Below, in pieces: positions 2,954 to 37,307 of a stretch of 64,000 nucleotides of DNA (position 1 is its first letter; every line of letters begins with the position of its first letter). The position numbers and the translations under genes were made by a program. The stretch covers positions 65,804 through 129,803 of the forward strand of contig CBDBDN010000005.1 in assembly GCA_965203855.1 (NCBI GenBank), given 5' to 3'. The notes under the pieces were generated by a model. The model was given only the letters and a program-made list of their open reading frames with translations, made no database searches and had not been told where the DNA came from. This stretch comes from Dehalococcoidia bacterium (GTDB lineage Bacteria; Chloroflexota; Dehalococcoidia; Lucifugimonadales; UBA3495).

Positions 2954-3007
2954 CCCAGCCGACCCAGTATAATGATACAACCCACCCCACAGCCGGGGAG
3001 AACCGCT

Positions 3008-3409
3008 ATGACCACCAAAGAAATGTCCCCATTGGAACACGCCCAAACCGCCCGCGATTTCCTCGCCGCCTCCGACCGGGAATTCGCCGCCGGCGACCAC
3101 CTCCAAGGCTCCGAAAAGCTCTACGGCGCCGCTACGCAGGCCATCATCGCCATTTGCCAGCAGCGGGGTTGGCGGTACAAGAGCCACCGCGCGATGCAGC
3201 AGGCCGTAGCCAGCATTGCGCGGGAGTATAACGACGACAACATCGCCGACGGCCTCACCGGCGGGTTTATCGCCGCGGAACGCTTTCACGAAAATTTCTT
3301 TCACGGCCATCTTGAGGATTACCAAAGAGAGGCCAACCGCCCGACGGTGCACCGCTTCGTCGCCCGAATGCTGACACTGCTGGACAGCGACAACGGCAGC
3401 GCGCCGTAA
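3008..3409 (+). CDS. PaREP1/HEPN-like small helical protein, paralog 3
   Basis: Paralog of the two genes above. Start at ATG 3008 (MTTKEMSPLEHAQTARDFL) by alignment, with the same duplicated upstream module. Confidence 0.6.
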   Translation: MTTKEMSPLEHAQTARDFLAASDREFAAGDHLQGSEKLYGAATQAIIAICQQRGWRYKSHRAMQQAVASIAREYNDDNIADGLTGGFIAAERFHENFFHGHLEDYQREANRPTVHRFVARMLTLLDSDNGSAP

Positions 3410-3477
3410 GCCGGCCCGCCCGCCGCCGCCGCCAAGCAGTCCCGCATCCGCCCGCCAACGCACCGGAGCATATCACT

Positions 3478-3903
3478 ATGAACCTCAACACTTACCTCAA
3501 CTTCAACGGCGATTGCCGCGCCGCCTTTGACTTTTACCGCTCCGTTTTCGGCGGGGATTTCACCTTTCTGGTAACCTTTGCCGACGGCCCCTCCGATCTG
3601 CCGCCGCTTTCCGACGCCGAAAAAAGCCTGATCATGCACGTCAGCCTGCCCGTCGGCAATAACATCCTGATGGGCAGCGACAACATCTCGGCATTCGGCC
3701 CCCCGTCCACCGTCGGCAGCAATTTCTCTATCAGCATCGGCGCCGACAGCAGGGCGGATACCGACCGCCTGGTCAACGGCCTCGCCGCCGGCGGCGCCGT
3801 CTTGATGCCGCCCGACGATATGTTCTGGGGCGCTTACTTCGGTATGTGCCGCGACCGCTTCGGCGTCAACTGGATGGTCAGCCACGAACCGGCGCAGGAG
3901 TAG
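3478..3903 (+). CDS. VOC/glyoxalase-fold protein, PhnB/YjdN-like
   Basis: Family-typical blocks in 141 aa: YLNFNGDCRAAFDFY, IMHVSLPVGNNILMGSD and FWGAYFGMCRDRFGVNWMV. Confidence 0.8.
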   Translation: MNLNTYLNFNGDCRAAFDFYRSVFGGDFTFLVTFADGPSDLPPLSDAEKSLIMHVSLPVGNNILMGSDNISAFGPPSTVGSNFSISIGADSRADTDRLVNGLAAGGAVLMPPDDMFWGAYFGMCRDRFGVNWMVSHEPAQE

Positions 3904-4029
3904 CTGGGGCCAATCGGCAATCCGGCGCTACTATTTGATACAACGTCGCCCTGGCGTCCGGGATGTAAGCGTTGCGCCGACGGCGCGGCGGCGATTCCGG
4001 CCAACGCTAGATACTACGGAGATTTCACG

Positions 4030-4875
4030 ATGCAAGCCATTGATATGCACGTCCATGTGCCCCGGGAACCGGGCCTGCCCGAAATTGAAATTGAGGCCGA
4101 ACTGCTGCGCTACTTCCGCGCGCCGCCGCCCCCGTCGGACCCGGCGGAAATGGCCGCCCGTTTCCGCAGCCTTGACCTGTTCGGCGTCATCTTTTCCGTG
4201 GACACTACCACCAACACCGGCGAAAAGCCCGACAGCAACGATTGGGTCGCCAGCATCGTCAACGCCCATCCGCAGCAGTTTATGGGCTTCGCTTCCGTTG
4301 ACCCCTGGATGGGCAAGGCCGCCTGCTACGAACTGGAACGCGCTGTCAAGGAACTCGGCCTCAAAGGACTGAAACTGCATCCCATACATCAGGCTTTTAT
4401 GCCCAACGATACCCACTTTTATCCCCTGTACGAAGTTGCCGACGGGCTGGGCATTCCGGTTCTGTTTCATTCCGGTTTCGCCGGCGCCGGTTCCGGTACG
4501 CCCGGCGGCAGCGGCCTCAAGCTCAAGTACAGCCAGCCCATCCCCTGCTTTGACGATGTGGCCGCCGATTTTCCCAACCTCACCATCATTATGGCCCATC
4601 CCGCCTGGCCTTGGATTGACCAGCAGATTGCCGTCGCCCTGCACAAATCCAATGTGTACCTGGACTTGTCTGGCTGGATGCCCCGGTTCATCCCGGAGCC
4701 GCTGCTGCGGGAAACCAACACCCGCTTGCAAGACAAGGTAATGTTCGGCTCCGACTACCCGTTCATCCAGCCCGATGCCTGGCTGCATGACTTTCAGAAC
4801 CTGCAAATGCGCGACCATGTCATCCCCAAAGTGCTGATTGAAAACGCCCGCCGCGCCCTCAACATCCCGGCCTGA
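4030..4875 (+). CDS. amidohydrolase-2 family metal-dependent hydrolase (TIM barrel)
   Basis: N-terminal IDMHVHV and C-terminal FGSDYPF motifs, 281 aa. Confidence 0.85.
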   Translation: MQAIDMHVHVPREPGLPEIEIEAELLRYFRAPPPPSDPAEMAARFRSLDLFGVIFSVDTTTNTGEKPDSNDWVASIVNAHPQQFMGFASVDPWMGKAACYELERAVKELGLKGLKLHPIHQAFMPNDTHFYPLYEVADGLGIPVLFHSGFAGAGSGTPGGSGLKLKYSQPIPCFDDVAADFPNLTIIMAHPAWPWIDQQIAVALHKSNVYLDLSGWMPRFIPEPLLRETNTRLQDKVMFGSDYPFIQPDAWLHDFQNLQMRDHVIPKVLIENARRALNIPA

Positions 4876-5063
4876 CCGCCCCATTTCCCGCCTTACCAGG
4901 TGATAGGATAAATGGAACGACAGCGCGGCTTTGGCGCGGTTCTTTCAATGACCGCAGCATATAGCGTCGGCTGCCGGACGGCGGTTATAGTAGCGGCGCA
5001 AAAGCAGCCGTCCCATGCCGCCCGGCGCCGGCTTGCTGTACGCCTGATTTCCGATTCGCACCC

Positions 5064-6779
5064 ATGACCTCCCAAGTCTATTACCGCAAATGGCGACCGG
5101 CCCGGTTCAGCGACCTGGCCGGCCAGGAACATATTACCGCTACCCTGCGCCAGGCCGTCATCCAGGGGCGGGTCAGCCACAGCTATCTGTTCTGCGGGCC
5201 GCGCGGCACCGGCAAAACCACTACGGCACGCGTCCTGGCCAAGGCCGTCAACTGCCTCAACCCGCAGCAGGGCGACCCCTGCAACGAGTGCGCCCCTTGC
5301 CAGTCTATCAACCAGGGCCGCAATATGGACATCATTGAGCTGGACGCCGCCAGCAACCGGGGCATTGACGAAATCCGCGACATCCGCGACAAAGTGCACT
5401 TTCTGCCCGCCGAAAGCGCCCGCAAAGTGTACATCATCGACGAAGCCCATATGCTCACCGCCCAGGCGTCCAACGCTTTCCTGAAAACCCTGGAGGAACC
5501 GCCGCAGCACGTCATTTTCATTCTCTGCACTACCGAAGCCCACAACATCCTGCCGACCATCATTTCCCGCTGCCAGCGTTACGACTTCCGGCGTCTGCCC
5601 GGACAAGTCATCTTTGACCGTTTGGCGCACATTACCGACCGGGAAGCCGTCGCCATTGAACCGGAAGCGCTGCGGCTGGTCGCCCGCAATGCCGGCGGCT
5701 CGCTGCGCGACGCCGAAAACATCCTGGAGCAGCTGGTAGTTTCGGCCCGTGATACCGTCAAGGCCGCCGATGTTGAGGAACTGCTCGGCTTGGGCCGCGG
5801 CGACGCCTACCTCAAACTGGCGCAGCAGCTCCTGCTAATGGACGCCCCCGGCGCTTTGTCCACCATCAACGAAGCCCTATGGGAGGGCGCCGACCCTCGC
5901 CAGATGCACCGCCAGACCCTAGACCTCCTCCGCGCGGCGCTGCTGCTGTCCTGGGATGCCGCCGACACGGTGGACTTGCCCGATGCGGCGTTGGAAACGC
6001 TGCGCGCCGCCGTACCGCAGGCCGACCGCAGCCGGATTTTGCGCGCCGTCCGCATCTGGGCCGAAGCCAATCTGCGCTATGACGCCCCGTCCGCGCTGCC
6101 GCTGGAAGTAGCCGCCGCCGAAATCGGCAGAGACGAACCCATCGCCCCGGAACTGCCGGCAGCGGAGCCGGCAACGCGGCCGGCCGCAGCCCCGCAGCGT
6201 CCGCGCGCGCCGGCGGACGCCCCATCCCGAGCGCCGGCCGCGTCATCGCCGCCCCCGGCGCCGCGCCCGAATACGCCGGCGCCCGACCGCGCTCCGCCGC
6301 GTCCGCCGTCCCCGTCACAATCGCCAACGCCGCCACAACGCAGCGCGCCGCCGCCGGCCGGCAGCCTGCAAGCCCAATGGGAGCAGGCCGTCCGTGATTT
6401 AAGCCGCACCAAAGGCAGCAAGTACAGCATCGGCGCCCTGCTACGCGACTGCCGCTCCGACAGCGTCCATCTGTCCGCCGACGACGCAACGCTGATCCTG
6501 CCCTTTCGCAACATCGCCAATCTGGACCGGATGAAAGAGGAACTGGATACCCCCGGCGCCCGAGTCCGTGATACCATCGAAAACGCAATTGAGCAGATTT
6601 TTGGCACCCGCTATTCCTTTGAGGTAACGCTTGCCAACGGCAATAGCGCTGGCAATGGCAATAGCGGCGGCAACGACGCCCGCCCGGCCCGCAGCAGCCT
6701 GCAAGACAGCCATCTGATGCGTACGGCAATGGGACTGGGCGCCCGTATCATCGAAGACCAACAGGAGACGCCAAACTGA
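5064..6779 (+). CDS. dnaX: DNA polymerase III subunit gamma/tau
   Basis: YRKWRPARFSDLAGQEH, P-loop GPRGTGKTT, zinc module CNECAPC and SRCQRYDF. A Pro/Ala-rich linker lies in the C-terminal half. Confidence 0.95.
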   Translation: MTSQVYYRKWRPARFSDLAGQEHITATLRQAVIQGRVSHSYLFCGPRGTGKTTTARVLAKAVNCLNPQQGDPCNECAPCQSINQGRNMDIIELDAASNRGIDEIRDIRDKVHFLPAESARKVYIIDEAHMLTAQASNAFLKTLEEPPQHVIFILCTTEAHNILPTIISRCQRYDFRRLPGQVIFDRLAHITDREAVAIEPEALRLVARNAGGSLRDAENILEQLVVSARDTVKAADVEELLGLGRGDAYLKLAQQLLLMDAPGALSTINEALWEGADPRQMHRQTLDLLRAALLLSWDAADTVDLPDAALETLRAAVPQADRSRILRAVRIWAEANLRYDAPSALPLEVAAAEIGRDEPIAPELPAAEPATRPAAAPQRPRAPADAPSRAPAASSPPPAPRPNTPAPDRAPPRPPSPSQSPTPPQRSAPPPAGSLQAQWEQAVRDLSRTKGSKYSIGALLRDCRSDSVHLSADDATLILPFRNIANLDRMKEELDTPGARVRDTIENAIEQIFGTRYSFEVTLANGNSAGNGNSGGNDARPARSSLQDSHLMRTAMGLGARIIEDQQETPN

Positions 6780-6781
6780 TT

Positions 6782-7084
6782 ATGGTAAATCGCAGAATGA
6801 TGCGCCAGGCCCAGCAGTTGCAGAACCGCCTGGCCCAAGCCCAAGAGGAACTGGCCGAAATGACCGCCGAAGGCTCCGCCGGAGGCGGCGTAGTGCGCGT
6901 CACCATGAACGGACGGCAGGAAGTATCGGCAGTGGTCATTGAACCGGAAGCGGTTGAGGATATTGACCTGCTGCAAGACCTGGTGGCCGCCGCCTTCAAC
7001 GACGCTTCTACCCGCACCCAGCAGATGGCCGCCGAAAAGATGAACGCCCTGACCGGTGGCATGAACATTCCCGGCCTGGTCTAG
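6782..7084 (+). CDS. ybaB: YbaB/EbfC nucleoid-associated protein
   Basis: 100 aa, QAQQLQNRLAQAQEEL...VTMNGRQEV..V.I.PE, located directly after dnaX. Confidence 0.9.
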   Translation: MVNRRMMRQAQQLQNRLAQAQEELAEMTAEGSAGGGVVRVTMNGRQEVSAVVIEPEAVEDIDLLQDLVAAAFNDASTRTQQMAAEKMNALTGGMNIPGLV

Positions 7085-7086
7085 CC

Positions 7087-7114
7087 GCGCGCCGCCGGGC
7101 CACCGGCGGCGCGC
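7087..7114. terminator. GC hairpin after ybaB
   Basis: Perfect 12-bp arms gcgcgccgccgg / ccggcggcgcgc with loop gcca, starting 3 nt after the stop. No T-tract. Confidence 0.45.
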
Positions 7115-7122
7115 TAAAGCGG

Positions 7123-7170
7123 ACGGCGTTTTATCCATACGGTATTACGGCGTTCTATCCATACGGTATT
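7123..7170 (+). promoter_or_regulatory. two tandem 24-bp direct repeats abutting the -10 box of gene 7187
   Basis: acggcgttTtatccatacggtatt / acggcgttCtatccatacggtatt (one mismatch), ending 4 nt before TATAAT. Confidence 0.6.
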
Positions 7171-7174
7171 AGGG

Positions 7175-7180
7175 TATAAT
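7175..7180 (+). promoter_or_regulatory. -10 box TATAAT, leaderless-type (6 nt before ATG 7187)
   Basis: tataat-gctctt-ATG. There is no room for an RBS. Confidence 0.55.
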
Positions 7181-7186
7181 GCTCTT

Positions 7187-8284
7187 ATGACTACCAGCAT
7201 AACCGACATCGCTGACCTCGCCCGCATCCTCAACGAGCAGCCGGAATGGCGCGACGCCGTCCGCAGCATCCTGCTCAGCCAGGCGCTGATTGACTTGCCG
7301 CAGCAGATCGCAGAATCCACGCAGGCCGCCAACCGCCGGCTGGACGCCTTGGAAGCCGGCCCATCCCGACTGGAAACCGCCTTGGCCGCGTTTATGGAGG
7401 CTACCAATCGCCGGCTGGACGCCCTGGAAGCCGGCCAAGTTGAGCTGCAAGCCGGCCAGGTTGAGTTTCCAGCCGGGCTTGGCCGGCTGGAAACCGCCTT
7501 AGCCGAGTTTATGGCGGCCACCAACCGCCGCCTGGACGCCCTGGAAGCCGGCCAAACCCGGCTGGAAACCGCCTTGGCCGAGTTTATGGAAGCCACCAAC
7601 CGCCGGCTGGACGCCTTGGAAGCCGGCCAAGCCCGTTTGGAAACTGCCTTGGCCGAGTTTATGGAATCTACCAACCGCCGGCTGGACGCCCTGGAAGCCG
7701 GCCAAGCCCGACACGATGCGGATATTGCCGAGGTGAAAGCGGGAATCGCCGAATTGCGGACAGACCTCGGGCGGCTTGAACAGAGGGTCAGCCGGTTGGA
7801 GGGCACCGTAGGCTGGCTGGTCGGCGCCGAACTGGAACGCTCCGTCCACGCCAACATCATCAGCATCGCCAGCCGTCAGCTGGGCCTGAACCGCGCCCGC
7901 ATCCTCCAAAGCAAAATCGTTGCCAGAGGGCCGGATTTGCAGGACATCATTGACGACGCTGAGGAACAGGGCGTCATCACCGCCGACCAGGGCCGCCATC
8001 TGGAACTGTCCGACATCATCATCAGCGGGCGGCGCAAAAGCGACCGGCAGCATTGCTATGTCGTTGCTGAAGTCTCCGCCGGCATCCGCGACGCCGACAT
8101 TACCCGCGCCCGCGACCGGGCGCAAACCTTGGCCGCGGCGCAGCAGCTGCCCGTGATTCCGATGGTAGTCGGCGCCAGCATCTCCCATCAGCAGCGCAGC
8201 CTGGCGGACAGCGCCGGCGTGTCGGTAGTAATCGCGCTCAGCCTGGCGCAGGATACCGATGATGACCCGCCGGCGGACGAATGA
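7187..8284 (+). CDS. coiled-coil tandem-repeat protein with possible C-terminal PD-(D/E)xK-like domain
   Basis: About five 25-aa repeats (TNRRLDALEAGQARLETALAEFMEA, nt about 7325-7720). The C-terminal part (ELSDIIISGRR...YVVAEVSAGIRDADITRARDRA) has a D...E.S/K-like pattern. No family was firmly recognised. Confidence 0.6.
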   Translation: MTTSITDIADLARILNEQPEWRDAVRSILLSQALIDLPQQIAESTQAANRRLDALEAGPSRLETALAAFMEATNRRLDALEAGQVELQAGQVEFPAGLGRLETALAEFMAATNRRLDALEAGQTRLETALAEFMEATNRRLDALEAGQARLETALAEFMESTNRRLDALEAGQARHDADIAEVKAGIAELRTDLGRLEQRVSRLEGTVGWLVGAELERSVHANIISIASRQLGLNRARILQSKIVARGPDLQDIIDDAEEQGVITADQGRHLELSDIIISGRRKSDRQHCYVVAEVSAGIRDADITRARDRAQTLAAAQQLPVIPMVVGASISHQQRSLADSAGVSVVIALSLAQDTDDDPPADE

Positions 8285-8344
8285 CTGCCCGCGCCGGCCC
8301 GCCGGACACGCCCTCGTTAGCCGCTAACCGGATGGCGCAGCATT

Positions 8345-8968
8345 ATGCTTGGCGATTCCCTCCCTGGCACTACCCGCTCCCTGGCGCAGCTTACCGAGGA
8401 ACTGCGCCGGCTGCCCGGCGTCGGCCCCAAAAGCGCCCAGCGCATCGCCTACTATATCGCCCAGATGCCGGCCGAGGAAGCCCGATCCCTCTCCGACGCC
8501 ATTATCGCCGTGAAAGACCTGATCCTGTTCTGCGACGAATGCCGCAACCTCACCGATGCCTCGCCTTGTGATATTTGCGCCAACCCGCAGCGCAACCGGG
8601 ACCAGATTTGCGTAGTTGAGGAATCCCGCGACCTCGTGGCGCTGGAACGCACCCGCGCCTATCGCGGCCTTTACCATGTGCTGCACGGCGTCCTCTCTCC
8701 CCTCAACGGCGTCGGGCCGGAGGACATCCATCTCCCCCAGCTCCTGGCCCGCCTTGACGGCGCCGCCGACCCCTTGCAGGAACTAATTATCGCTACCAAC
8801 CCCACTTTAGAGGGCGATGCTACCGCCGACTTTATCCAGCGCCGCCTGTCCGGCTCCGGCATCACCGTTACCCGCTTGGCCCGGGGATTGCCCGTTGGCG
8901 GGTCCCTGGAATTCGCCGACGAAACTACCCTGACCCGCGCCTTGGCCGGCCGCAGCCCAACGGAATAG
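8345..8968 (+). CDS. recR: recombination protein RecR
   Basis: LPGVGPKSAQRIAYY helix-hairpin-helix, C4 zinc finger CDEC...CDIC, and a Toprim region (VVEE..D..ALE). Confidence 0.95.
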   Translation: MLGDSLPGTTRSLAQLTEELRRLPGVGPKSAQRIAYYIAQMPAEEARSLSDAIIAVKDLILFCDECRNLTDASPCDICANPQRNRDQICVVEESRDLVALERTRAYRGLYHVLHGVLSPLNGVGPEDIHLPQLLARLDGAADPLQELIIATNPTLEGDATADFIQRRLSGSGITVTRLARGLPVGGSLEFADETTLTRALAGRSPTE

Positions 8969-8975
8969 CCCGGCG

Positions 8976-9767
8976 ATGGCGCAGCCGCGCACCTACCGCG
9001 CCACGGCGCTTACCCTACGCAAGCGCATCGCCGGCGAATCCGACCTCATCGCTACCCTGCTTACCCGTGAGCATGGCAAGGTTGAGGCGGTAGCGCGCGG
9101 CGCGCGCCGCTTTACCAGCCGGCTGATGGGGCATTTTGAGCCCCTTACCCTGCTGCGCGTGTCTCTGGCGCGCGGCCGTTCTCTGGACACGGTTAGCGAA
9201 GCCGAAGTCATTTCCGCTTTCAATGCCCTCAAAAGCGACTACCGAACTACCGCCCGCGCCCTGTATGTCGCCGAACTGCTGGACGGATTCTCCGCACTCT
9301 CCGCCGTCAATCCCGAACTCTTTGACCTGGCTACCCGAACTTTGGCCGCTATTTCCGCAACGCCGGACGCCGACCTGCCGCTGCGCTGTTTCGACCTGCA
9401 ACTGCTCAACCTCTCCGGCTTTCTCCCCGAACTTTACTGCTGCGTTGACTGCGGCGATGAGCTGGCGCCGGAACAGCATCGCTACGCCGCCGGCGCCGGC
9501 GGTACGCTTTGCCCCGACTGCATCCCCGACGATACCCCGATTCGCCCGCTTTCGCTCCCGGCCCTCAAAGTGCTGCGCCTGCTGCACCGCACCGCCCGGC
9601 CCGACCTGCTGCCCGATATTCACATCCCGCCCGACATCCATAGCGAAGTGAGCGCCGCCCTTTCCGCCAGCCTCCGTTACTGGATGGACGGCCCGGTGCG
9701 TTCCCAAACTTTCCTGGACGGCATCGCCGCTGCTACGGCAGCGCATCCCGGTACTGCTATAAAGTAA
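8976..9767 (+). CDS. recO: DNA repair protein RecO
   Basis: N-terminal OB-fold pattern (ALTLRKRIAGESDLIATLLTREHGKVEAVARGARR), a C-terminal CxxC...CxxC, and position next to recR. Confidence 0.85.
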   Translation: MAQPRTYRATALTLRKRIAGESDLIATLLTREHGKVEAVARGARRFTSRLMGHFEPLTLLRVSLARGRSLDTVSEAEVISAFNALKSDYRTTARALYVAELLDGFSALSAVNPELFDLATRTLAAISATPDADLPLRCFDLQLLNLSGFLPELYCCVDCGDELAPEQHRYAAGAGGTLCPDCIPDDTPIRPLSLPALKVLRLLHRTARPDLLPDIHIPPDIHSEVSAALSASLRYWMDGPVRSQTFLDGIAAATAAHPGTAIK

Positions 9768-9817
9768 TGCCGTGTATAAAACGATGCCGTGTATAAAGCG
9801 ATGCCGTGAAATCCGCC
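9767..9817 (+). repeat. 17-bp tandem direct repeat x2.5 after recO
   Basis: atgccgtgtataaaacg / atgccgtgtataaagcg / atgccgtgaaatccgcc. A further gatgccgg lies 12 nt before the accC start. Confidence 0.7.
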
Positions 9818-9991
9818 GGAACTTGCCCCGTCGTCTATTGAACCGGCAGCGCCAAAAGGATTACAAAGAGCGTCATTAACGCGGCGCGGCCGCCATCCTC
9901 AACCGGGCACACCGTACCGCCCCCGTCCCGACCCGCCCGCCGGACGGACGGAATACGCCAAGAGTGGTAAGACGATGCCGGAGAGCGCAAG

Positions 9992-11578
9992 ATGTTCAGC
10001 AAAGTACTGGTCGCTAACCGCGGCGAAATCGCCGTCCGCATCATTCGCACTTGTCAGCGGTTGGGCGTGCCCACCGTGGCCGTCTATTCCGAAGCCGACG
10101 CCGGCGCCGCCCACACCCGGCAAGCCGACGCAGCAGTCTGCATCGGCCCCGCCGCCGCCGCCGATTCTTACCTCAACATTGACGCCGTGCTGTCCGCCTG
10201 CCGCGCCACCGGCGCCGCCGCCATCCATCCCGGCTACGGATTCCTGTCGGAAAACAGCGAACTTTCCCGCCGCTGCAAATCCGAAGGCATCATCTTTATC
10301 GGCCCCGGCGAGGAAGTCCTCAACCAGATGGCCGACAAACTCTCGGCGCGTCGGGTCGCCCGCAAATCCGGCCTCCCCGTTATGCCCGGCACCGAGGAGC
10401 CGGTACAGGACGACGAAGCCATCGCCAAAGCCTGGGAACTGGGCTTTCCGATGATGGTCAAAGCCACTGCCGGCGGCGGCGGCATCGGCATCCACGTCGT
10501 GCATAGCATGGCGGAACTGGAACCCGTCATTGAGCGGACGCGCAAAACCGCCGCCGCCGCTTTCGCCGACTCCAGCCTGTTCTACGAGCGCTACCTGCAA
10601 GGCGCTTCCCATATTGAAGTGCAAATTGTCGCCGACCACTTCGGCAATGTGCTGCACCTTTACGAGCGCGACTGCTCCATCCAGCGCCGCAATCAAAAGC
10701 TGATTGAGGAAACGCCGGCTACCGCCAAGCTCAACCCCGAAGTGCGCGGCCAAATCCGCCGCCTGTCCCGCCAGCTGGGTCGCGAAGTCGGCTACACCAA
10801 TGCCGGCACCGTCGAGTTTCTGGTTGCCCCCGACGGCCATTTCTACTTCCTGGAAATGAACCCCCGCTTGCAAGTGGAACACGGCGTTACCGAACTGCTT
10901 ACCGGGCAGGACATTGTAGCCTTGCAATTACAAGCCGCCGCCGGCATCCCTTTTGAACTGCGCCAGCGCAACATCCGCGCCCACGGCCACGCCATCGAAG
11001 CCCGCGTCTATCCCGAAAACCCCGATACTTGCCTGCCCACCGTCGGCACGGTAACCGATCTGCGGCTGCCGGAGGGCCGACATATCCGCGTAGATACCGC
11101 CCTCTATGTCGGATACGAAGTGCTGCTGCATTACGAGCCGCTGCTCGCCAAAGTGATGGTCAGCGGCCCCGACCGTCCCGCCGCCATCGCCCGGCTGGAC
11201 GCCGCCCTGGCCGATTTCCACCTGGACGGCGTAACCACCAACATCCCCCTGCTGCGGGATGTGCTGGCCAGCCCGGAGTTCGCTTCCGGCAATTACCACA
11301 CCGGCACGCTGCCGCAGATTATAGAACGCCGGCGGCAGTCGCACGGCCTCGCCCAAAATCAAAATGGCCGGAATGCGCCGGGCAAAACGCCGCAAAACGG
11401 GTATAATGCTGGCTTGGCGCAAAACCCGCGAGCATTGGCCGCCGCCATCGGCGCCGCCGTAGTGGCGGCCCAAGCCGGCCAGTCAGCCAGCGTTACGCCG
11501 GAACCCGCCGGCTCCCGCTGGCGCACTACGGGACGCCGGGAACTTTTCCGCTCGCGGCTCGGCAGCGCAACCTGGTAA
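9992..11578 (+). CDS. accC: biotin carboxylase (acetyl/acyl-CoA carboxylase subunit)
   Basis: MFSKVLVANRGEIAVRIIRT, ATP-grasp blocks (MVKATAGGGGIG; EMNPRLQVEH). There is a low-complexity C-terminal extension of about 75 aa. Confidence 0.9.
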   Translation: MFSKVLVANRGEIAVRIIRTCQRLGVPTVAVYSEADAGAAHTRQADAAVCIGPAAAADSYLNIDAVLSACRATGAAAIHPGYGFLSENSELSRRCKSEGIIFIGPGEEVLNQMADKLSARRVARKSGLPVMPGTEEPVQDDEAIAKAWELGFPMMVKATAGGGGIGIHVVHSMAELEPVIERTRKTAAAAFADSSLFYERYLQGASHIEVQIVADHFGNVLHLYERDCSIQRRNQKLIEETPATAKLNPEVRGQIRRLSRQLGREVGYTNAGTVEFLVAPDGHFYFLEMNPRLQVEHGVTELLTGQDIVALQLQAAAGIPFELRQRNIRAHGHAIEARVYPENPDTCLPTVGTVTDLRLPEGRHIRVDTALYVGYEVLLHYEPLLAKVMVSGPDRPAAIARLDAALADFHLDGVTTNIPLLRDVLASPEFASGNYHTGTLPQIIERRRQSHGLAQNQNGRNAPGKTPQNGYNAGLAQNPRALAAAIGAAVVAAQAGQSASVTPEPAGSRWRTTGRRELFRSRLGSATW

Positions 11579-11579
11579 T

Positions 11580-12029
11580 TTGACCACCGTAACCGTACGC
11601 ATCGGCGAACAATGGTACACCGTTGAAGTCGGCGACCTCTCTCAGTCGCCGGTTACGGTTACCGTTGACGGCGAAACCTTTCTGATTGACGTCGCCGTGG
11701 AACGCGGGCCGGCCCTGGCGGCGCCGCCGCGTTCCGGCCGGCCCGCCAGCAGCCTCAGCGCCCCCGATGCCCCGACTCCCGCATCCCCCTCCGGCGGCCC
11801 GGCGGCCCCTGCCAGCGACGACATCCTGCGTTCCCCGATGCCGGGGCGCGTTATGTCGGTGCTGGTTCGCCCCGGCGACGCCGTAGCCGCCGGCGCCGAA
11901 GTATGCGTGGTGGAAGCCATGAAAATGGAGCAAAGCATCCTGGCGCACCGCAACGGCATCGTCAAAACGGTGTTCGTCCAGCCTATGGACTCGGTCAACG
12001 CCAACGATCCGCTGGTAGAATTGGAATAG
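11580..12029 (+). CDS. biotin carboxyl carrier / biotinyl-domain protein
   Basis: Biotinylation motif EAMKME near the C-terminus and a Pro/Ala linker. TTG start lies 1 nt after the accC stop. Confidence 0.85.
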   Translation: MTTVTVRIGEQWYTVEVGDLSQSPVTVTVDGETFLIDVAVERGPALAAPPRSGRPASSLSAPDAPTPASPSGGPAAPASDDILRSPMPGRVMSVLVRPGDAVAAGAEVCVVEAMKMEQSILAHRNGIVKTVFVQPMDSVNANDPLVELE

Positions 12030-12057
12030 CAAACCCGATTGAACAAGGAGAGCCGTT

Positions 12058-12507
12058 ATGTCGGTAAAAGCCGGACGCCGTTCCATAGAACTGGTCGGCG
12101 AAGTGCGGGGAATGACGCTGAATGATGACGGCATCGGCGGCGCATTTCAGCTCCGCCTGGACGACGGCGCAACCGTCGCCGTTGATTTTGGCGCCGAGCA
12201 TGAGCCCGGCATCGTAATGGCGTTGTTGCAGCGTACTTATCAACGCCTCAAAATTACCGGATTGGGCGATTTCGGCGCAGACGGCAAACTGCGCCGCGTC
12301 TGCCGCCTGGACACCAAAACGCCGGCGCGAATTCCATCGCCGGCGGAAGCGCAGCCGGCAACCCCGGGCAGCGCGCGGGAGTTTATAGAGGAGTGGATTG
12401 CATTCGGCAAGACCATCCCGGAGGAGGAATGGGCCAAGTTCCCCACCGATTTCGCCGAAAATATGGACCACTATATGTACGGATTGCCCAAGCGAGGTGA
12501 GGAATGA
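12058..12507 (+). CDS. putative antitoxin partner of VapC (unclassified, 149 aa)
   Basis: 4-bp overlap with the downstream PIN gene and an AGGAG RBS. The C-terminal tail (FAENMDHYMYGLPKR) resembles antitoxin tails I recall from PIN modules. The N-terminal 90 aa were not recognised. Confidence 0.5.
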   Translation: MSVKAGRRSIELVGEVRGMTLNDDGIGGAFQLRLDDGATVAVDFGAEHEPGIVMALLQRTYQRLKITGLGDFGADGKLRRVCRLDTKTPARIPSPAEAQPATPGSAREFIEEWIAFGKTIPEEEWAKFPTDFAENMDHYMYGLPKRGEE

Positions 12508-12911
12508 CGCCGGTTTTCGCCGATACTTCCTACTGGTTTGCCGCTCTGGATCCGAGCGACCAATGGCACGAAGCGGCGATGCGCGCCGCCGCCGCTATCG
12601 GCGACCGCGAAATCGTTACTACCGAAATGGTCCTCGCCGAACTCCTGAACGCCGTCAGCCGGCTGGGGCCGACATTCCGGGCCGACGCCGCCGCGCGCAT
12701 CCGGAGAATGCGGCGCATACCGAACATTACCATCATTGAGCAAACCGCCGATCAGTTTGAGGCAGCGCTGACCTATTACGAAGCGCGGCTGGACAAACGC
12801 TGGGGCATTACCGACTGCGCCAGCTTCCTGACCATGCGCGCCGCCGGCATCACCCACGCCCTTACCGCCGACCGCGATTTTACGCAGGCCGGATTCTCCC
12901 TCTTAATGTGA
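12504..12911 (+). CDS. vapC: PIN-domain ribonuclease, VapC-like toxin
   Basis: Acidic PIN residues in the expected spacing across 135 aa: FADTSYW, VTTEMVLAELLN, ITDCASF and LTADRDF. Confidence 0.85.
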   Translation: MTPVFADTSYWFAALDPSDQWHEAAMRAAAAIGDREIVTTEMVLAELLNAVSRLGPTFRADAAARIRRMRRIPNITIIEQTADQFEAALTYYEARLDKRWGITDCASFLTMRAAGITHALTADRDFTQAGFSLLM

Positions 12912-12930
12912 AATCGTCCCGCCAATCCGC

Positions 12931-12936
12931 TAAAAT
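12931..12936 (+). promoter_or_regulatory. -10 box TAAAAT, leaderless-type (6 nt before uvrA ATG)
   Basis: taaaat-aaccct-ATG at 12943. Confidence 0.5.
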
Positions 12937-12942
12937 AACCCT

Positions 12943-16068
<3,126 letters not shown>

Positions 16069-28595: not shown

Positions 28596-28985
28596 ATGCC
28601 CGAAAGCAACAACCCACAAAGCCCAGACGCCCAGCGCCTGATTAACGAAGCCGCCCAAACCCGCGGCTATACCCTGGAAATGCACCGCATCAACGCCCTC
28701 GCCGACCCGGAATGGACGCAGAAATACGGCGAATTCATCGCAGCCACCTACACCGGCCAGCGCCTCCTGGACCGCAAAACCAAAGAGCTCCTCCAAATCT
28801 GCGTCGAAACCGCCCTCCGCGCCGACCAGGAGCAGATCCAGGCCCACATCCGCGTTGCCCTCAACGAAGGCGCATCTCCCCGCGAAATCCTGGAAGCGAT
28901 GCAGGCCGTCATCGCCCCCATGGGCGCCCTCGCCTTCCGCCGCGGCGTCCAGGCCTGGGCCGCCGAAACCGGCTTTCAATACTAA
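28596..28985 (+). CDS. carboxymuconolactone decarboxylase (AhpD-like) family protein
   Basis: 129 aa with LDRKTKELLQICVETAL....EQIQAHIRVALNEGASPREILEA. Confidence 0.75.
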   Translation: MPESNNPQSPDAQRLINEAAQTRGYTLEMHRINALADPEWTQKYGEFIAATYTGQRLLDRKTKELLQICVETALRADQEQIQAHIRVALNEGASPREILEAMQAVIAPMGALAFRRGVQAWAAETGFQY

Positions 28986-29089
28986 CCTCGCAAACTGCGC
29001 CGGGATGCCCCGTTGTGTACAATAAACCACGACCGCAGCCCGGCGCAGACTGCCGCACCACGCCGCACAACCCCGGCGCAATCGCCGGC

Positions 29090-29134
29090 TTAATCGTAGC
29101 GGGCCTAATCGTAGCGGGCTCAATCATAGAGGTA
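29090..29134 (+). repeat. 15-bp tandem direct repeat x3 immediately upstream of the MTase-HNH gene
   Basis: ttaatcgtagcgggc / ctaatcgtagcgggc / tcaatcatagaggta, ending 8 nt before ATG 29143. Confidence 0.75.
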
Positions 29135-29142
29135 ACCCCCCA

Positions 29143-30966
29143 ATGTCAGCGCTGAATGTCGCCAACCGCACCCTGGCGATTATGGACAATCTGCGGTTCC
29201 TGCGCCATCTCAACAACGAATGCGTTGACCTGATTGCCATCGACCCCCCCTTCGCCGCCAACGAAACCTTTACCGGCCGTCCCCGCCCGCCCGTCAGCGA
29301 CGCCGAATATGCCGAGGAACTGGCGTTGGCGCAATCCCACGGCGCCCGGCACAACGAGGGCCGCGGCGAAACCCGCGTCCGCGACATCTGGAACTGGGAT
29401 GCCGATACCCACCCGGATTGGAAAATGGCCATTGAGGACGACTACCCCGCCATCCACGCCGTCATTGCAGCCGTTGAAGCCTGCGCTACCGAAAACGAAG
29501 CCGCCTACATCGCTTTTATGGCCGCCCGACTGCTGGAATGCCACCGCGTCCTCAAGCCCGCCGGCAGCCTCTACCTGCACTGCGACGACCACGCCAACGG
29601 CTACCTCCGTATGCTGATGGACGCCATCTTCGGCGCCGGCAACTTCCGCAACGAAGTCGCATGGCGACGCAGCGGCGGCCGCTCCGACTCCCAGAAATGG
29701 GGCCGCACCCACGACCGCTTGCTGTATTACGGCAAAAGCGAATCGTCTGTTTGGAACCAGCAATATCAGCCCCACAACCCGGAATATGTTCGCCGCAACT
29801 ATCGGTACGACGACAACGACGGGCGCGGGGCTTATCGCAAGCTGCCCCTGCACGCCGCCGGCGCCAGCGGCGGCGATTCCGGCTCCCCTTGGCGCAACTA
29901 CGACCCCAACTCCCACAACCGCCACTGGTCAACCCCCATCCGCGGCGTGATGCACCAGTACATCATTGACCACAATATAATCCCCGGCTGGCCCAGCCAA
30001 TACCCCACGACTCACCACAAATTGGATGCCTTGGACCAGCACGGCCTTTTGGTTCATTCCGACAACTACCTGCCCGACCTTAAAACCTACCTCGCCGCTA
30101 CCAAAGGTATCGCCGCTACGGACTTCATCACCGATATTCCCATGGCGTCCGGCCGCGAGAGAACCGGCTACGCCACCCAAAAGCCCCTGGAACTCTACGA
30201 GCGCATCATCGCCGCCAGCTCCAACCCCGGCGACATCGTGCTGGATGTATTCGCCGGCTGCGCTACCACCGCCGTCGCCGCCGAGCGCCTGGGCCGCCAG
30301 TGGGTAGCCTGCGATATGGCCTACCGCGCCTGGACGATGCTCAAACGCCGTTTCTATCTCAACGGCTTTATGCTTACGGATATGACCGATGCCACCAAAG
30401 ACGCCTTGGCGTCCGTCAGCAAAGGCCGGGGCTTCCAGGAACCCCAGCAGTGGACCGCCAGCCGCACCATCGGCCCCAATGAACTGCCAACCCGGACCGA
30501 TACCGACCCGGCGCCGCATCACCAGCTGCCGGCCGCACAACGCCCCGGCCGGCAGAGTACGCAGTCCGCATCCTGGTCCGGCCGCATCCCCAAAGAGGAC
30601 GCCAAGCAGCTGCTCATCAATCGCTTCGGCCCGGTATGCTGGGGCTGCGGCTACGAACCCCGCCGCCCCAACGGCAGCCTGGACGAAACCCTGCTGGAAG
30701 TTGACCACATCCGCGCCCGCCGCGCCGCCGCAGGTACGCCCGGCAACGACGAACTCTACAACCTGGCCCTCCTGCACCGCACCTGCAACGGCATCAAGCG
30801 CAACCGTCTCACCCTAGAGGAACTCCGCAGCCACAACGCCATGCACGGCCTCCTCTATGTCAACAGCCTTGCCGACCTGGTCGACCTATACGAAGCCACC
30901 CAGTTTGCCGCCGAGCAAATCGCCATACACACCGCCGCCCACGGCCTCCAACCCGGCATCACCTAA
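29143..30966 (+). CDS. beta-class N6A/N4C DNA methyltransferase fused to a C-terminal HNH nuclease domain
   Basis: Motif IV DPPF at 29242-29253 and LYLHCDDHANGYLRMLMDAIFG. Motif I VLDVFAGCATTAVAAERLGRQWVACD at about 30238-30315 (order IV then I indicates beta class). HNH: CWGC...EVDHIRAR...NLALLHRTCNGIKRN at about 30637-30810. Confidence 0.85.
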   Translation: MSALNVANRTLAIMDNLRFLRHLNNECVDLIAIDPPFAANETFTGRPRPPVSDAEYAEELALAQSHGARHNEGRGETRVRDIWNWDADTHPDWKMAIEDDYPAIHAVIAAVEACATENEAAYIAFMAARLLECHRVLKPAGSLYLHCDDHANGYLRMLMDAIFGAGNFRNEVAWRRSGGRSDSQKWGRTHDRLLYYGKSESSVWNQQYQPHNPEYVRRNYRYDDNDGRGAYRKLPLHAAGASGGDSGSPWRNYDPNSHNRHWSTPIRGVMHQYIIDHNIIPGWPSQYPTTHHKLDALDQHGLLVHSDNYLPDLKTYLAATKGIAATDFITDIPMASGRERTGYATQKPLELYERIIAASSNPGDIVLDVFAGCATTAVAAERLGRQWVACDMAYRAWTMLKRRFYLNGFMLTDMTDATKDALASVSKGRGFQEPQQWTASRTIGPNELPTRTDTDPAPHHQLPAAQRPGRQSTQSASWSGRIPKEDAKQLLINRFGPVCWGCGYEPRRPNGSLDETLLEVDHIRARRAAAGTPGNDELYNLALLHRTCNGIKRNRLTLEELRSHNAMHGLLYVNSLADLVDLYEATQFAAEQIAIHTAAHGLQPGIT

Positions 30967-31042
30967 CCCCCGGCCAAATACCGCCCTCATTCCCAACATA
31001 TACCGTCACCCCGCCCGACCTACCGTCATCCCGCCCCCCACC

Positions 31043-31280
31043 CGTCATTCCGGCGCAAGCCGGAATCCAACCCTCAAAACCACAACCATCATTCTCCCAC
31101 TACCACCGTCACGCCGTCCGCCCTACCGCCATCCCGCCTCCCAACCGTCATTCCTAGCCACCCCCAACCAGCATTCCCGCACCCCCACCCGTCATTCCGG
31201 CGCAAGCCGGAATCTATGGCTGCCAGTTCAATTACCGTCGTAGCGGATTACAACGCTGGATCCCGGCGCAAGCCGGAACG
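31043..31280 (+). repeat. REP-like cluster (two full hairpins, one degenerate, many half-sites)
   Basis: Full copies at 31043-31068 and 31190-31214, plus a degenerate cccggc-gcaa-gccgg at 31262-31278. ACCGTCA(T/C)(T/C)CC half-sites recur every 15-25 bp from 30997. Confidence 0.85.
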
Positions 31281-31327
31281 ACGGCAGTAGCGCGCCCGCC
31301 GCGCGCATAAAACCCCCACCCCCACCG

Positions 31328-32761
31328 TCAGCCCTCACCCGGCACATTCCGATGCCCCCACAGCGGATGCCGGAAAGTAGGCGCCAGCGCCGGGTTCAGC
31401 TGCCGCCGCCGTTCCGCCGTACCGCCGTCAACCGCCGCCGCAACATCCGGTTCGGCAGCCCCCGCCATCCCCGGACGCCGCGCCGTAGCCCGATGCGCCG
31501 GCCCCCGGGCATTCAGCCGATTCAGCTGCCGCGCCAGCTCTTGCAAGCTGTGCAAGTTATGCGCCGGCAGAAAGTCATCAACATACGGCAGCGCCGCCTG
31601 CATCCCCCGCGTCAGCGGCTGGTAATCCGCCGAACCCAGCAGCGGATTCAGCCAAATCAAACGGTGGCAGCTGCGTTGCAGCCGCGCCATCTCTTTGGAC
31701 AGCAGCTCCGGCTCCCCCCGATCCCAGCCGTCGGAAATTATCAATGCCACGGCGCCGCTTCGCAGCGTCCGCCGCGCCCAGCCGTAATTGAACGCCTTTA
31801 TCGCCTCTCCAATCCGCGTGCCGCCCGCCCAGTCCGGCACAACCCGCGCCACTTCCGACACCGCCCGGTCAACCCCCCGATGCTCCAAATGCCGCGTGAT
31901 GCGCGTCAGCCGGGTCGCAAACAAAAACGCCTCCACCGGCTGCCCGCTGCCCGCTACGGTATGGACGAAATGCAGCAGCATCCGCGTGTACCGTTCCATC
32001 GACCCGCTGACATCGCAGATTAGAACCAGCGGACGCGGACGGGCTTTACGCCGGCGATGCGCCAGTTCCAGCATTTCGCCGCCATAGGACAGGCTGCGGC
32101 GCATACTCCGCCGCAAGTCAATCGCACCGCCGGCCCGGTTGTCCCAGGCCAAACGACGAGTGCGCCGCCGCCCCAAATCCCACTCCAGCTCCGCCATCAT
32201 TTCCTGCGCCGCCGCCATTTCCGACAGCGTATATTCGGCAAAATCCCGCTGCCGCAGCGCTTCCCGCGCGCTGAAAGACCGCTGCAAGTCAACCACCGGC
32301 TGCCTTTCCCCGGCGTCATCCGGCGGCAAATCATCGCCCGGCGGCCCGTCCGCCGTATCCTCCCGATGCGGCATTATGCGGGGCGTGCGGTAGCGCCGTT
32401 CCTCTCCCATTGAGCGCAAATCCCGCATACTGCGCCCGTGCGCCGGCCGCCGCCAGAACACCTGAAACGCCTCGTCAAACCGCGCCAGGTCGCTTTGACG
32501 ATGCACCAGCAAAGCCCGCGCCGCCAGCCGAAAATCGTTCCGGCTCCCCCCGATGGGGATATACTCGGCAGCCCGCACCAAGTCCAGCATATTCGCCGTG
32601 CCAAAATCCAGACCTAGCCGCCGCAGCGTCTCCCCAAAAATCAGCAGGTTAGCCAGAATAGCCCCATCGCCAACATCAGCCGGCGCCGTATGCATATTAA
32701 CCGGCTGCGAGCTCCCCGGATGCAAATTGCCCGGCTGCGAATCGATATATGCGGCAGTCAT
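31328..32761 (-). CDS. VWA-domain protein, CoxE-like
   Basis: N-terminal LANLLIFGETLRRLGLDFG...FDEAFQVFW block and a VWA MIDAS motif (LICDVSGSM), 477 aa. Confidence 0.8.
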   Translation of the reverse strand: MTAAYIDSQPGNLHPGSSQPVNMHTAPADVGDGAILANLLIFGETLRRLGLDFGTANMLDLVRAAEYIPIGGSRNDFRLAARALLVHRQSDLARFDEAFQVFWRRPAHGRSMRDLRSMGEERRYRTPRIMPHREDTADGPPGDDLPPDDAGERQPVVDLQRSFSAREALRQRDFAEYTLSEMAAAQEMMAELEWDLGRRRTRRLAWDNRAGGAIDLRRSMRRSLSYGGEMLELAHRRRKARPRPLVLICDVSGSMERYTRMLLHFVHTVAGSGQPVEAFLFATRLTRITRHLEHRGVDRAVSEVARVVPDWAGGTRIGEAIKAFNYGWARRTLRSGAVALIISDGWDRGEPELLSKEMARLQRSCHRLIWLNPLLGSADYQPLTRGMQAALPYVDDFLPAHNLHSLQELARQLNRLNARGPAHRATARRPGMAGAAEPDVAAAVDGGTAERRRQLNPALAPTFRHPLWGHRNVPGEG

Positions 32762-35826: not shown

Positions 35827-36252
35827 TTACAGCGGGTTGCGCCAACGCAAGCCGGGAAAGCGTCCGAAATCGGCATCTCCGGTATGCGCCTCTGCCGCGT
35901 ATTCCATCGCCAACGCCGCAATATGGGCATCGGGAACCAGGTTGCCGCCGGCCCCGACCGCATCAAGGTTTTGCCGGAGCAATGCCAGATGCGCCGGCCC
36001 CGGATTGATTAGTACAATATGCTCGCAAGCCAGCCAGTCCTGAACATAGCCAACGGCCTGCGCTGGCGTCGCGGGCGGCGTTACCACTCTGGGATTGGTT
36101 ATCAACCGGATGAACCCAACAATGACCAGCCAAGGCAGGCCAACGGTTTCCGTTCCGTTAACGAGACTTTCCCACCAGGTTTGGGCGGCTTTATGGTGTG
36201 GCGAATTGTTGTCATGAGCGAACACCAGCAGGTTGACGTCCGGCACAATCAT
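35827..36252 (-). CDS. vapC: PIN-domain ribonuclease, VapC-like toxin
   Basis: MIVPDVNLLVFA, a conserved D in PDAHIAALA, and TGDADF near the C-terminus, 141 aa. Confidence 0.85.
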   Translation of the reverse strand: MIVPDVNLLVFAHDNNSPHHKAAQTWWESLVNGTETVGLPWLVIVGFIRLITNPRVVTPPATPAQAVGYVQDWLACEHIVLINPGPAHLALLRQNLDAVGAGGNLVPDAHIAALAMEYAAEAHTGDADFGRFPGLRWRNPL

Positions 36253-37307
36253 TGCGATTTTTCCGGTTCCGTTGGCCCAGACCTAGCCAGCTTTGCCAGC
36301 AATTCCTCCTCCTCAAGCTGTGCGTTGAGGTGATTGAGGTTCATCTCTGCCACTCCCGGCGCGAATTTGCCGTTGTGCGGAATTACCCGGAACGGGGGTT
36401 TATCGGGCTGAGCTTCGGGTTCCGGCAAAATGTGCGCGTGGATTTCTGGATACGAATGCCAAATGCGCCGCTTGGGTTCGGCGGCAAAAGCGTAGCAGGC
36501 CAGAATGTCCTCATGCGTCAGTTCCGGGAAATCGGCCAGTACCTCCGCCTCGGTCATTCCCCCGGCCAGGTACGCCAGCACATCGTACACCGTGATATGC
36601 ATACCCCGGATGCAGGGCTGTCCGTTGCGCTTGCCCAGTTCAATGGTGATGGTTTTCTGGTAGTTCGCCGACAAGCGGTTTAGCAGCTGCTCAGGAACTT
36701 GGGGCGGGATGCGATTACGACGCGCTTCCTGCCGCTGCTTGCTGCGTTCATCAGCGTATTCCCTTTCCATATTGAGAAAGAGCTTCCACGCCGCGGTGGC
36801 ATAGGCCATCCATGCGACCTTATACTCCCGCTCCACGACAGCAACATCGAGACTGATATTCTCGTAGTAAAGCCACTCGACAAATTCATCGCTTTGGTTC
36901 CTACCCCATCCGGGGTATTCGTCAAGCCTGTCATCAAAACTCTTTACATCAGGGATACGCGGAGGTGTTGGAGCATCGTCAGGACGGCCCTGGCGCCGGA
37001 GGTGTTTTTGGCGTTTGAGTAAATCCTGCCAGTCATCCCACGTCGCCGCCTGTACCCAAGCCGCCGCATCCTCGTACCCCAGCTGCTCCCAATCCATTTC
37101 GATAACCGCCCGGAATTCCTTTTCCTGTTCCCAAACGCGGGCCATCGCCTGTTGTACCGACGGGTTGTCAAGGTTGGCCCGCATCCGCTCGTGGCTGGAC
37201 GCCTTGGCGGCCAGCGCCTCGCGGCAAACCTGCGATATGTTCAGTTCCGGCTTGAGCGGTTCCAGCCGCTTGTGCAGTTCGTTGGGGATGTTGATGCCGA
37301 TACGCAT
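36249..37307 (-). CDS. multidomain antitoxin-like protein: N-terminal RHH-like segment, central unknown region, DUF433 domain, C-terminal tail
   Basis: 4-bp overlap with the vapC start. The N-terminus MRIGINIPNELHKRLE is beta-strand plus helix of RHH type. The DUF433-like block is GKRNGQPCIRGMHITVYDVLAYLAGGMTEAEVLADFPELTHEDILACYAFAA. Confidence 0.7.
   Translation of the reverse strand: MRIGINIPNELHKRLEPLKPELNISQVCREALAAKASSHERMRANLDNPSVQQAMARVWEQEKEFRAVIEMDWEQLGYEDAAAWVQAATWDDWQDLLKRQKHLRRQGRPDDAPTPPRIPDVKSFDDRLDEYPGWGRNQSDEFVEWLYYENISLDVAVVEREYKVAWMAYATAAWKLFLNMEREYADERSKQRQEARRNRIPPQVPEQLLNRLSANYQKTITIELGKRNGQPCIRGMHITVYDVLAYLAGGMTEAEVLADFPELTHEDILACYAFAAEPKRRIWHSYPEIHAHILPEPEAQPDKPPFRVIPHNGKFAPGVAEMNLNHLNAQLEEEELLAKLARSGPTEPEKSQ

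Follow-up and report, generated by a model that had tools for sequence, protein, structure and literature searches.

A mobile Mod-like DNA methyltransferase fused to a conserved HNH domain in sponge-associated Dehalococcoidia: a candidate single-chain restriction-modification enzyme with exchangeable recognition cassettes

A 64,000-nucleotide stretch of a Dehalococcoidia bacterium genome (Chloroflexota, Lucifugimonadales, UBA3495; assembly GCA_965203855.1, contig CBDBDN010000005.1, positions 65,804 to 129,803; hereafter the window) harbors a fusion gene at 29143-30966 on the forward strand. Its 607 uninterrupted codons encode P0001, a 607-residue protein that joins an N-terminal beta-class DNA methyltransferase to a C-terminal HNH nuclease domain. 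As judged from sequence and comparative data, the gene appears, with moderate confidence, to encode a self-contained, single-polypeptide enzyme of the restriction-modification (R-M) type, or a selfish one. The methylase is Mod-like, the HNH domain is conserved and under purifying selection, and no partner gene is present; many types of target-recognition domain (TRD) occur in a constant scaffold, several paralogues share a genome, and the gene shows both presence/absence polymorphism and frequent decay. Taken together, these features point to an R-M-type enzyme that needs no second protein and whose specificity is under diversifying pressure. A preliminary description of the locus had listed a self-contained R-M or defence enzyme among its options, and this is still the best reading.

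The open reading frame (ORF) is preceded by a Shine-Dalgarno sequence, GAGG, 9-13 nt 5' of the start, and in alignment the start methionine coincides with that of full-length homologues. GC content is even over the region. The N-terminal catalytic half of the methyltransferase (aa 1-175, 29143-29667) belongs to the conserved scaffold and contains motif IV, DPPF (aa 34-37, 29242-29253). The TRD follows (aa 176-339, 29668-30159), a swappable cassette delimited by bimodal identity and sharp swap edges. The next block (aa 340-404, 30160-30354) is the best conserved and collects the PDB matches; it contains motif X, TQKPLELYERII (aa 345-356), and the S-adenosylmethionine (AdoMet) motif I, VLDVFAGCATT (aa 366-376). 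A semi-conserved linker (aa 405-477, 30355-30573) leads to the HNH nuclease domain (aa 478-560, 30574-30822) and to a helical C-terminal tail (aa 561-607, 30823-30963), in which a helix is predicted at aa 582-600 and for which a role in dimerisation may be suspected. The preliminary description had recognised the beta-class methyltransferase and its fusion to HNH, the former borne out by Pfam, motif order and fold and the latter by Pfam and the HNH motifs, and had recorded a linker of about 100 residues rich in Pro, Thr and Gln. The linker is indeed present, but it is shorter (about 73 aa), shows some conservation and is in part predicted to be structured, model confidence being low solely at aa 458-476.

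Assignment to the beta class rests on the order of the elements: motif IV, then the variable domain, then motif X, then motif I. Pfam N6_N4_Mtase (PF01555) covers aa 28-393 (E 1.3e-34, 120.5 bits vs a threshold of 26.7). NCBIfam models of CcrM- and PRK11524-type adenine methylases match across the AdoMet region, and PADLOC returns nothing beyond generic type II and type III methyltransferase models. In a sequence search of the PDB, the motif X/I block matches M.MboIIA, CcrM, RsrI and Mod proteins, with M.MboIIA (1g60) as the top match of the AdoMet region (6e-15). The full-length AlphaFold model (pLDDT 79.7) has its best Foldseek match in EcoP15I Mod (4zcf, 2e-16), followed by the Mod-like methyltransferase 6k0w of H. 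pylori; the small beta-class methylases M.MboIIA, CcrM and RsrI are also recovered (E range 2e-16 to 1e-11). The methyltransferase half is therefore a beta-class, Type III Mod-like N6/N4 enzyme.

The HNH domain is identified by a profile match and by its motifs, the fold matches of the isolated domain being weak. Pfam HNH (PF01844) matches aa 516-555, and NCBIfam gives a weak match to the HNH region of IscB at aa 486-561. The motifs are CWGC (499-502), DH (521-522), N540, H545 and C548-N549, from which a zinc site (C499/C502/H545/C548) and a catalytic set of the HNN type (D521-H522, N540, N549) are predicted. C499, C502, D521, H522, N540, H545, C548, N549 and K552 are invariant in 116 aligned sequences. 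When a subfamily with only 22-23% identity is added to the alignment, the CxxC, DH, N, CN, K and N columns still do not vary, so the HNH module is intact, as the preliminary description had held. The H545 column is Cys in that subfamily, which identifies H545 as the third zinc ligand (CCHC vs CCCC). With N549 as the last catalytic residue, the site is of the D-H...N...N type, in keeping with the weak IscB match; this is the active site of the Cas9 and IscB HNH domains. Pairwise ratios of nonsynonymous to synonymous substitution (dN/dS) are 0.00-0.19 in the HNH domain and 0.04-0.22 in the methylase core. The HNH domain is thus under purifying selection. A separate model of the C-terminal domain (pLDDT 83.7, pTM 0.80) places a strand-strand-helix arrangement at the motifs. 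Its top Foldseek matches are weak (E 0.3-7) and are HNH domains: SauCas9 HNH (7enh), PacI (3ldy, probability 0.51), Cap5 and SpCas9. A PDB sequence search using the HNH region alone gave chance matches only.

Variation within the family is concentrated in the recognition domain. In a set of 116 sequences, median pairwise identity is highest in the motif X/I block (0.88), followed by the HNH domain (0.84) and the N-terminal methylase half (0.76); it is 0.58 in the linker, 0.56 in the tail and 0.35 in the recognition domain. Pairwise identity of the recognition domain is bimodal, either 0.2-0.4 or at least 0.6, whereas that of the scaffold is unimodal (0.7-0.9). Single-linkage clustering at 50% separates 16 recognition-domain types among 82 copies. 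Furthermore, paralogues of the same genome can match at about 100% of residues in aa 1-165 and again in aa 346-607, whereas aa 166-345 are unrelated; the edges of the exchanged block are sharp and fall at about aa 166-180 and aa 331-346. Such cassette swaps are seen between loci L002 and L066, L009 and L069 with a third tandem copy, in the tandems of L007 and L021, and between L054 and L055 (loci numbered within the comparative set described below). Copies of different genomes have only about 78% of scaffold residues in common. This suggests that scaffolds are homogenised within a genome, or that genes duplicated recently and then received a new recognition cassette; by either route, different specificities are maintained side by side. 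The same contrast appears in sponge metagenomes, in which the window sequence is present: in contigs from these samples, the scaffold segments of the gene reach 25-100x the depth of the single-copy flanks vs about 1.5-4x for the recognition-domain segment, and assemblies break at the conserved segments.

The family is large and multi-copy, yet taxonomically narrow. A word-based search in which 8000 candidates were scored gave 2033 homologous proteins at E<=1e-3, for which the source databases offer no name but 'hypothetical protein'. The top 120 show 60-99% identity, and the majority are nearly full-length proteins (most 570-625 aa). In GTDB, with one genome per species, 121 stretches encode a relative, of which 79 loci were kept; all 79 come from Dehalococcoidia or 'Chloroflexi' metagenome-assembled genomes, many of them complete chromosomes of 1.5-4.7 Mb. 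Several genomes contain 2-4 or more copies. Two loci, L081 and L021, each have four of the fusion genes within 12 kb, namely two long tandem copies and two copies of a short subfamily. The architecture had been described at first as uncommon, which the number of homologues contradicts, although the kept loci confine it to Dehalococcoidia. A search with aa 405-607, the C-terminal module by itself, recovers only 153 of 1.84 billion cluster representatives (43 at E<=1e-10). About 60 of the 153 have methylase motif I upstream and about 30 have both methylase halves; the remainder are HNH proteins whose N-terminal regions match no Pfam family. The fusion of a beta-class methyltransferase to this HNH module is therefore older and wider than the subfamily studied here, yet rare overall. 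The earlier suggestion of a domesticated phage protein found no support: a phage, plasmid or viral origin was considered, but the C-terminal module matches nothing in the phage, plasmid or IMG/VR collections, and the family as a whole has in IMG/VR only a generic hit to methyltransferase motifs.

No companion gene accompanies the fusion. Within about 10 kb of the window copy there is no Res, helicase or specificity gene, in agreement with the preliminary description, nor is there a res gene at the corresponding place in L080. When ORFs of at least 100 aa within 5 kb on each side were clustered across the 79 loci, only antisense shadow ORFs inside the fusion gene recurred, and a partner gene was rejected. 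The real neighbours are unrelated metabolic genes (SDR, luciferase-like, DUF1800/DUF1501, CoA-transferase and similar).

In the window, the gene lies on an insertion between two convergent genes, a CMD-family gene upstream (28596-28985, forward strand, Pfam CMD) and a CoxE-like VWA gene downstream (31328-32761, reverse strand, Pfam VWA_CoxE). The segment between them (28986-31327, 2.34 kb) is made up of the gene, 157 bp in front of it and 361 bp of REP-like repeats behind it; the neighbourhood is as first described. In two relatives, L084 and L085, whose CoxE protein is 81% identical, the stop codons of the CMD and CoxE genes are 16 bp apart. The wider synteny is kept (NAD synthase, YjgF, a Methyltransf_11 gene, Amidohydro_2, CMD, CoxE), so these relatives retain an empty site and the 2.34-kb segment is an insertion. 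The same arrangement as in the window occurs in L080, a strain with about 97% identity in the gene segment, and in a second contig, L082.

Type III Mod proteins are the nearest relatives of the methylase half. EcoP15I Mod (4zcf), the H. pylori Mod-like protein (6k0w) and Mbo45V Mod (7dsu) share with P0001 a beta-class amino-methyltransferase and a central variable TRD flanked by conserved N- and C-terminal parts; Mod proteins are its best matches by structure and by PDB sequence, and the PADLOC MTase_III models match too. Allelic swapping of recognition domains is known for mod genes. In Type III systems, cleavage is assigned to a Res subunit (SF2 helicase-like ATPase and PD-(D/E)xK nuclease), whereas P0001 has a fused C-terminal HNH domain and no ATPase. 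No Res gene lies nearby in any of the 79 loci, which argues against membership of Type III. Like P0001, the Type IIG/IIC/IIL enzymes (MmeI, BpuSI, Eco57I) combine nuclease, methyltransferase and TRD in one chain without a partner, and their specificity shifts via the TRD, the working principle predicted for P0001. They consist of an N-terminal PD-(D/E)xK nuclease and a gamma-class methyltransferase (PMC4081073). In contrast, P0001 begins with a beta-class methyltransferase and carries HNH at the C-terminus; it thus departs from the group in both defining domains, and no sequence kinship was detected beyond the common methyltransferase fold.

The closest pairing of both chemistries is found in Type IIS systems such as MboII/M.MboIIA (also MnlI and HphI), which associate an HNH nuclease with a beta-class N6-adenine methyltransferase. 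R.MboII and MnlI are HNH-type Type II enzymes (PMC4081073). There the two activities reside in separate proteins, each with its own recognition, whereas in P0001 they are fused and presumably share one TRD; the HNH domain of P0001 is likened to R.MboII by enzyme type only. The HNH domains of Cas9 and IscB share the D-H...N...N pattern, with a final Asn instead of His. The IscB match is weak and the SauCas9 and SpCas9 fold matches are non-significant, P0001 shows no sign of RNA guidance, and the likeness is confined to the small catalytic core. Among the 79 loci there is no recurrent target gene or site of the kind expected for a free-standing HNH homing endonuclease. A literature search found no paper describing a methyltransferase-HNH fusion, and the R-M reviews and surveys consulted describe HNH nucleases as separate proteins only.

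For the favored R-M-type enzyme, the following mechanism is proposed. The central recognition domain (aa ~170-340) would read a short DNA sequence, and the Mod-like methyltransferase would then methylate host DNA, probably at N6 of adenine since motif IV is DPPF. DNA in which the same site is unmethylated would be cut or nicked by the C-terminal HNH domain, whose predicted D-H...N...N site sits on a CCHC zinc knuckle. Exchange of recognition cassettes between near-identical scaffolds would reprogram the specificity. The enrichment of sponge symbionts in R-M and other defence genes (PMC5649159, PMC5099237) fits the ecology of such a gene. More tentatively, the family may represent an undescribed class of one-protein R-M enzymes in which a C-terminal HNH domain, joined to a Mod-like beta methyltransferase, replaces Res. 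In that case each genome could hold a small library of paralogues that exchange TRD cassettes, and gene conversion or recent duplication would keep the scaffolds nearly identical. Since Mod proteins are dimeric, paralogues with identical scaffolds might even pair, giving combined specificities.

Several observations weigh against an active R-M enzyme at this locus. A single chain would somehow have to spare newly replicated or hemimethylated host DNA. The Pfam HNH score (22.6 bits) is marginal, barely above the gathering score of 21.4, and Foldseek with the isolated C-terminal domain returned nothing significant (best E 0.33). Many copies have housekeeping or metabolic genes as neighbours and lie outside any recognisable defence island. 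Transcription is a further difficulty. A family extended -10 element, TGnTAGAAT, occurs about 50 nt upstream in 23 of 68 distinct upstream regions; the window copy does not have it, and a consensus scan found no sigma-70-like promoter upstream of it, so this copy may be poorly expressed. Among the sequencing runs with the gene there is no RNA; two runs of unstated type give exact contigs and a flat depth across the flanks, as DNA of the source sample would. Transcription of the window copy may continue from the CMD gene, which has the same orientation. Control by SOS/LexA was also considered and found no support: no upstream region has an exact GAAC-N4-GTTC box, and one-mismatch boxes occur in 10 of 68 regions, taken as near chance, with none in the window.

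The gene is a mobile, dispensable cassette that multiplies in the chromosomes of sponge-associated Dehalococcoidia. Between copies in different contexts, DNA homology extends from the start codon, or from a sharp point 57-104 bp upstream, to the stop codon. What moves is therefore the ORF by itself, in some cases together with a short promoter of its own. Tandem arrays contain up to four genes, and about 11 of 82 copies are broken or truncated. In one Dehalococcoidia genome, four identical 3.4-kb units of an IS1595-family transposase and the fusion gene (L042:8633-12044, L043, L044, L058) form a recently active composite unit, and an IS1595 transposase is also near two identical copies in another genome and at a few other loci. 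IS1595 was rejected as a general vehicle, as it is limited to a few genomes and no transposase match exists anywhere in the window, where the gene is accordingly not an IS1595 passenger.

This mobility is the basis of an alternative that is rather unlikely, yet the likeliest of the rivals: a selfish homing or addiction element. The HNH domain would cut unmethylated chromosomes, or alleles without the gene, after which repair copies the cassette or the losers die; the selected function would be spread of the gene and not phage defence. The bare, sharply bounded cassette without a transposase at most loci, the many copies per genome in unrelated contexts, the clean insertion relative to the empty site, and the 25-100x excess depth of the scaffold in sponge metagenomes would all be expected of such an element. 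However, the insertion sites have no recognisable common target, flanking genes vary among the 79 loci, and neither conserved ends nor target duplications are seen between copies. With about 13% of copies decaying, the element is not strongly addictive. R-M systems can themselves behave selfishly, and this explanation overlaps with the R-M reading to the point that computation cannot separate the two.

A regulatory or repair role is less consistent with the data and correspondingly doubtful. The enzyme would then carry out regulatory or strand-marking methylation (phasevarion- or Dam-like), with HNH nicking for repair or recombination. The contexts are housekeeping-like, four copies flank mutL near recA in two genomes, and the fold is Mod-like. 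Tandem repeats also occur upstream, as in phase-variable mod genes (a 15-mer in the window, 7-mer and 8-mer arrays in L061). The 15-bp triple direct repeat, noted from the outset as a possible regulator of the gene, does exist (29087-29129, forward strand, 2.9 copies, TRF period 15) and has the Shine-Dalgarno at its end. It has three units in the window and two in L080 and in one sponge metagenome (a contig of run X4, with 15 bp missing at 29112); its copy number alters the spacing 5' of the Shine-Dalgarno, not the reading frame. The linkage to mutL is limited to two loci. Sixteen TRD types, differing paralogues in the same genome, presence/absence polymorphism and frequent pseudogenes are unlike a core repair or regulatory gene. 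Least probable, and likewise less consistent with the data, is a methyltransferase with a catalytically silent HNH domain serving as a zinc-knuckle DNA-binding or dimerisation module: the marginal Pfam score and the lack of a significant structural match for the isolated domain would suit it, but the general base D521-H522, the metal ligand N549 and the zinc ligands are invariant across subfamilies down to 22% identity, dN/dS is 0-0.19, and relatives in L081 and several representatives score clearly on Pfam HNH and HNH_5.

Returning to the R-M-type enzyme, it would, if active, represent a new single-chain restriction-enzyme architecture, a beta-class Mod-like methylase with a C-terminal HNH domain. 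To our knowledge, all characterised single-chain restriction enzymes pair a gamma-class methylase with a PD-(D/E)xK nuclease. The family offers at least 16 natural recognition modules in a near-constant frame, a ready system for studying the part of TRDs in specificity, and one that might yield new specificities of cutting or nicking. If correct, the reading would throw light on the control of foreign DNA in uncultured sponge symbionts, whose genomes are streamlined and rich in repeats, and on the spread of restriction-type genes as bare cassettes that lack a transposase. New at the window locus are the proof of insertion from the empty site, the block-wise exchange of recognition cassettes between near-identical scaffolds of one genome, the dN/dS values, the assignment of the zinc ligands and the HNN site, and the depth signature in metagenomes.

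Several further features of the loci were observed. A cluster of REP-like hairpins (cgtcattccggcGCAAgccggaat units) lies 3' of the gene (~30980-31330), and units with the hairpin ccggcGCAAgccgg (cgtcattccggcgcaagccggaat) are found on both sides of the gene (30980-31330 and 28990-29090) and elsewhere in the window. Their depth, summed over contigs of sponge metagenomes, is 3000-16000 vs 16-50 for unique flanks. The array is 361 bp long in the window vs about 590 bp in L080.

A DUF433 gene is located a few kb downstream of the fusion gene (window 36249-37307, reverse strand). In L082:3454-4964, a DUF433 gene is followed by a PIN-domain gene in an arrangement that looks toxin-antitoxin-like. In the empty-site relative L084 (11341-14884), two inverted DDE_Tnp_1 (IS4/IS5-like) genes of equal length bracket a FitA-like antitoxin region, from which the PIN gene of the otherwise collinear contig L085 is missing. 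A DUF4058 gene on the opposite strand, directly downstream of the fusion gene in 9 of 79 loci (e.g., L010:11874-12692), is the sole recurring non-metabolic neighbour.

At L081:240-3434 and L021:665-3493, two tandem genes of the short subfamily (467-494 aa, 31-39% identity) lie directly 5' of mutL, and the two long-family copies are a few kb downstream, adjoining ispH (LYTB); the layout is the same in both genomes. At L061:9890-10000, (GCAACCG)x7 and then (CCAACCAG)x3-4 directly precede the start codon of the fusion gene, a simple-sequence tract that resembles the kind driving phase variation. Finally, a perfect 13-nt palindrome, CTGCTGACAGCAG, is present just 5' of the extended -10 element TGGTAGAAT in L010, L012, L014, L019, L024, L033 and L076. 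It is situated about 76-88 nt upstream of the gene, homology between copies ends sharply at about -87, and the palindrome could be an operator or the end of the cassette.

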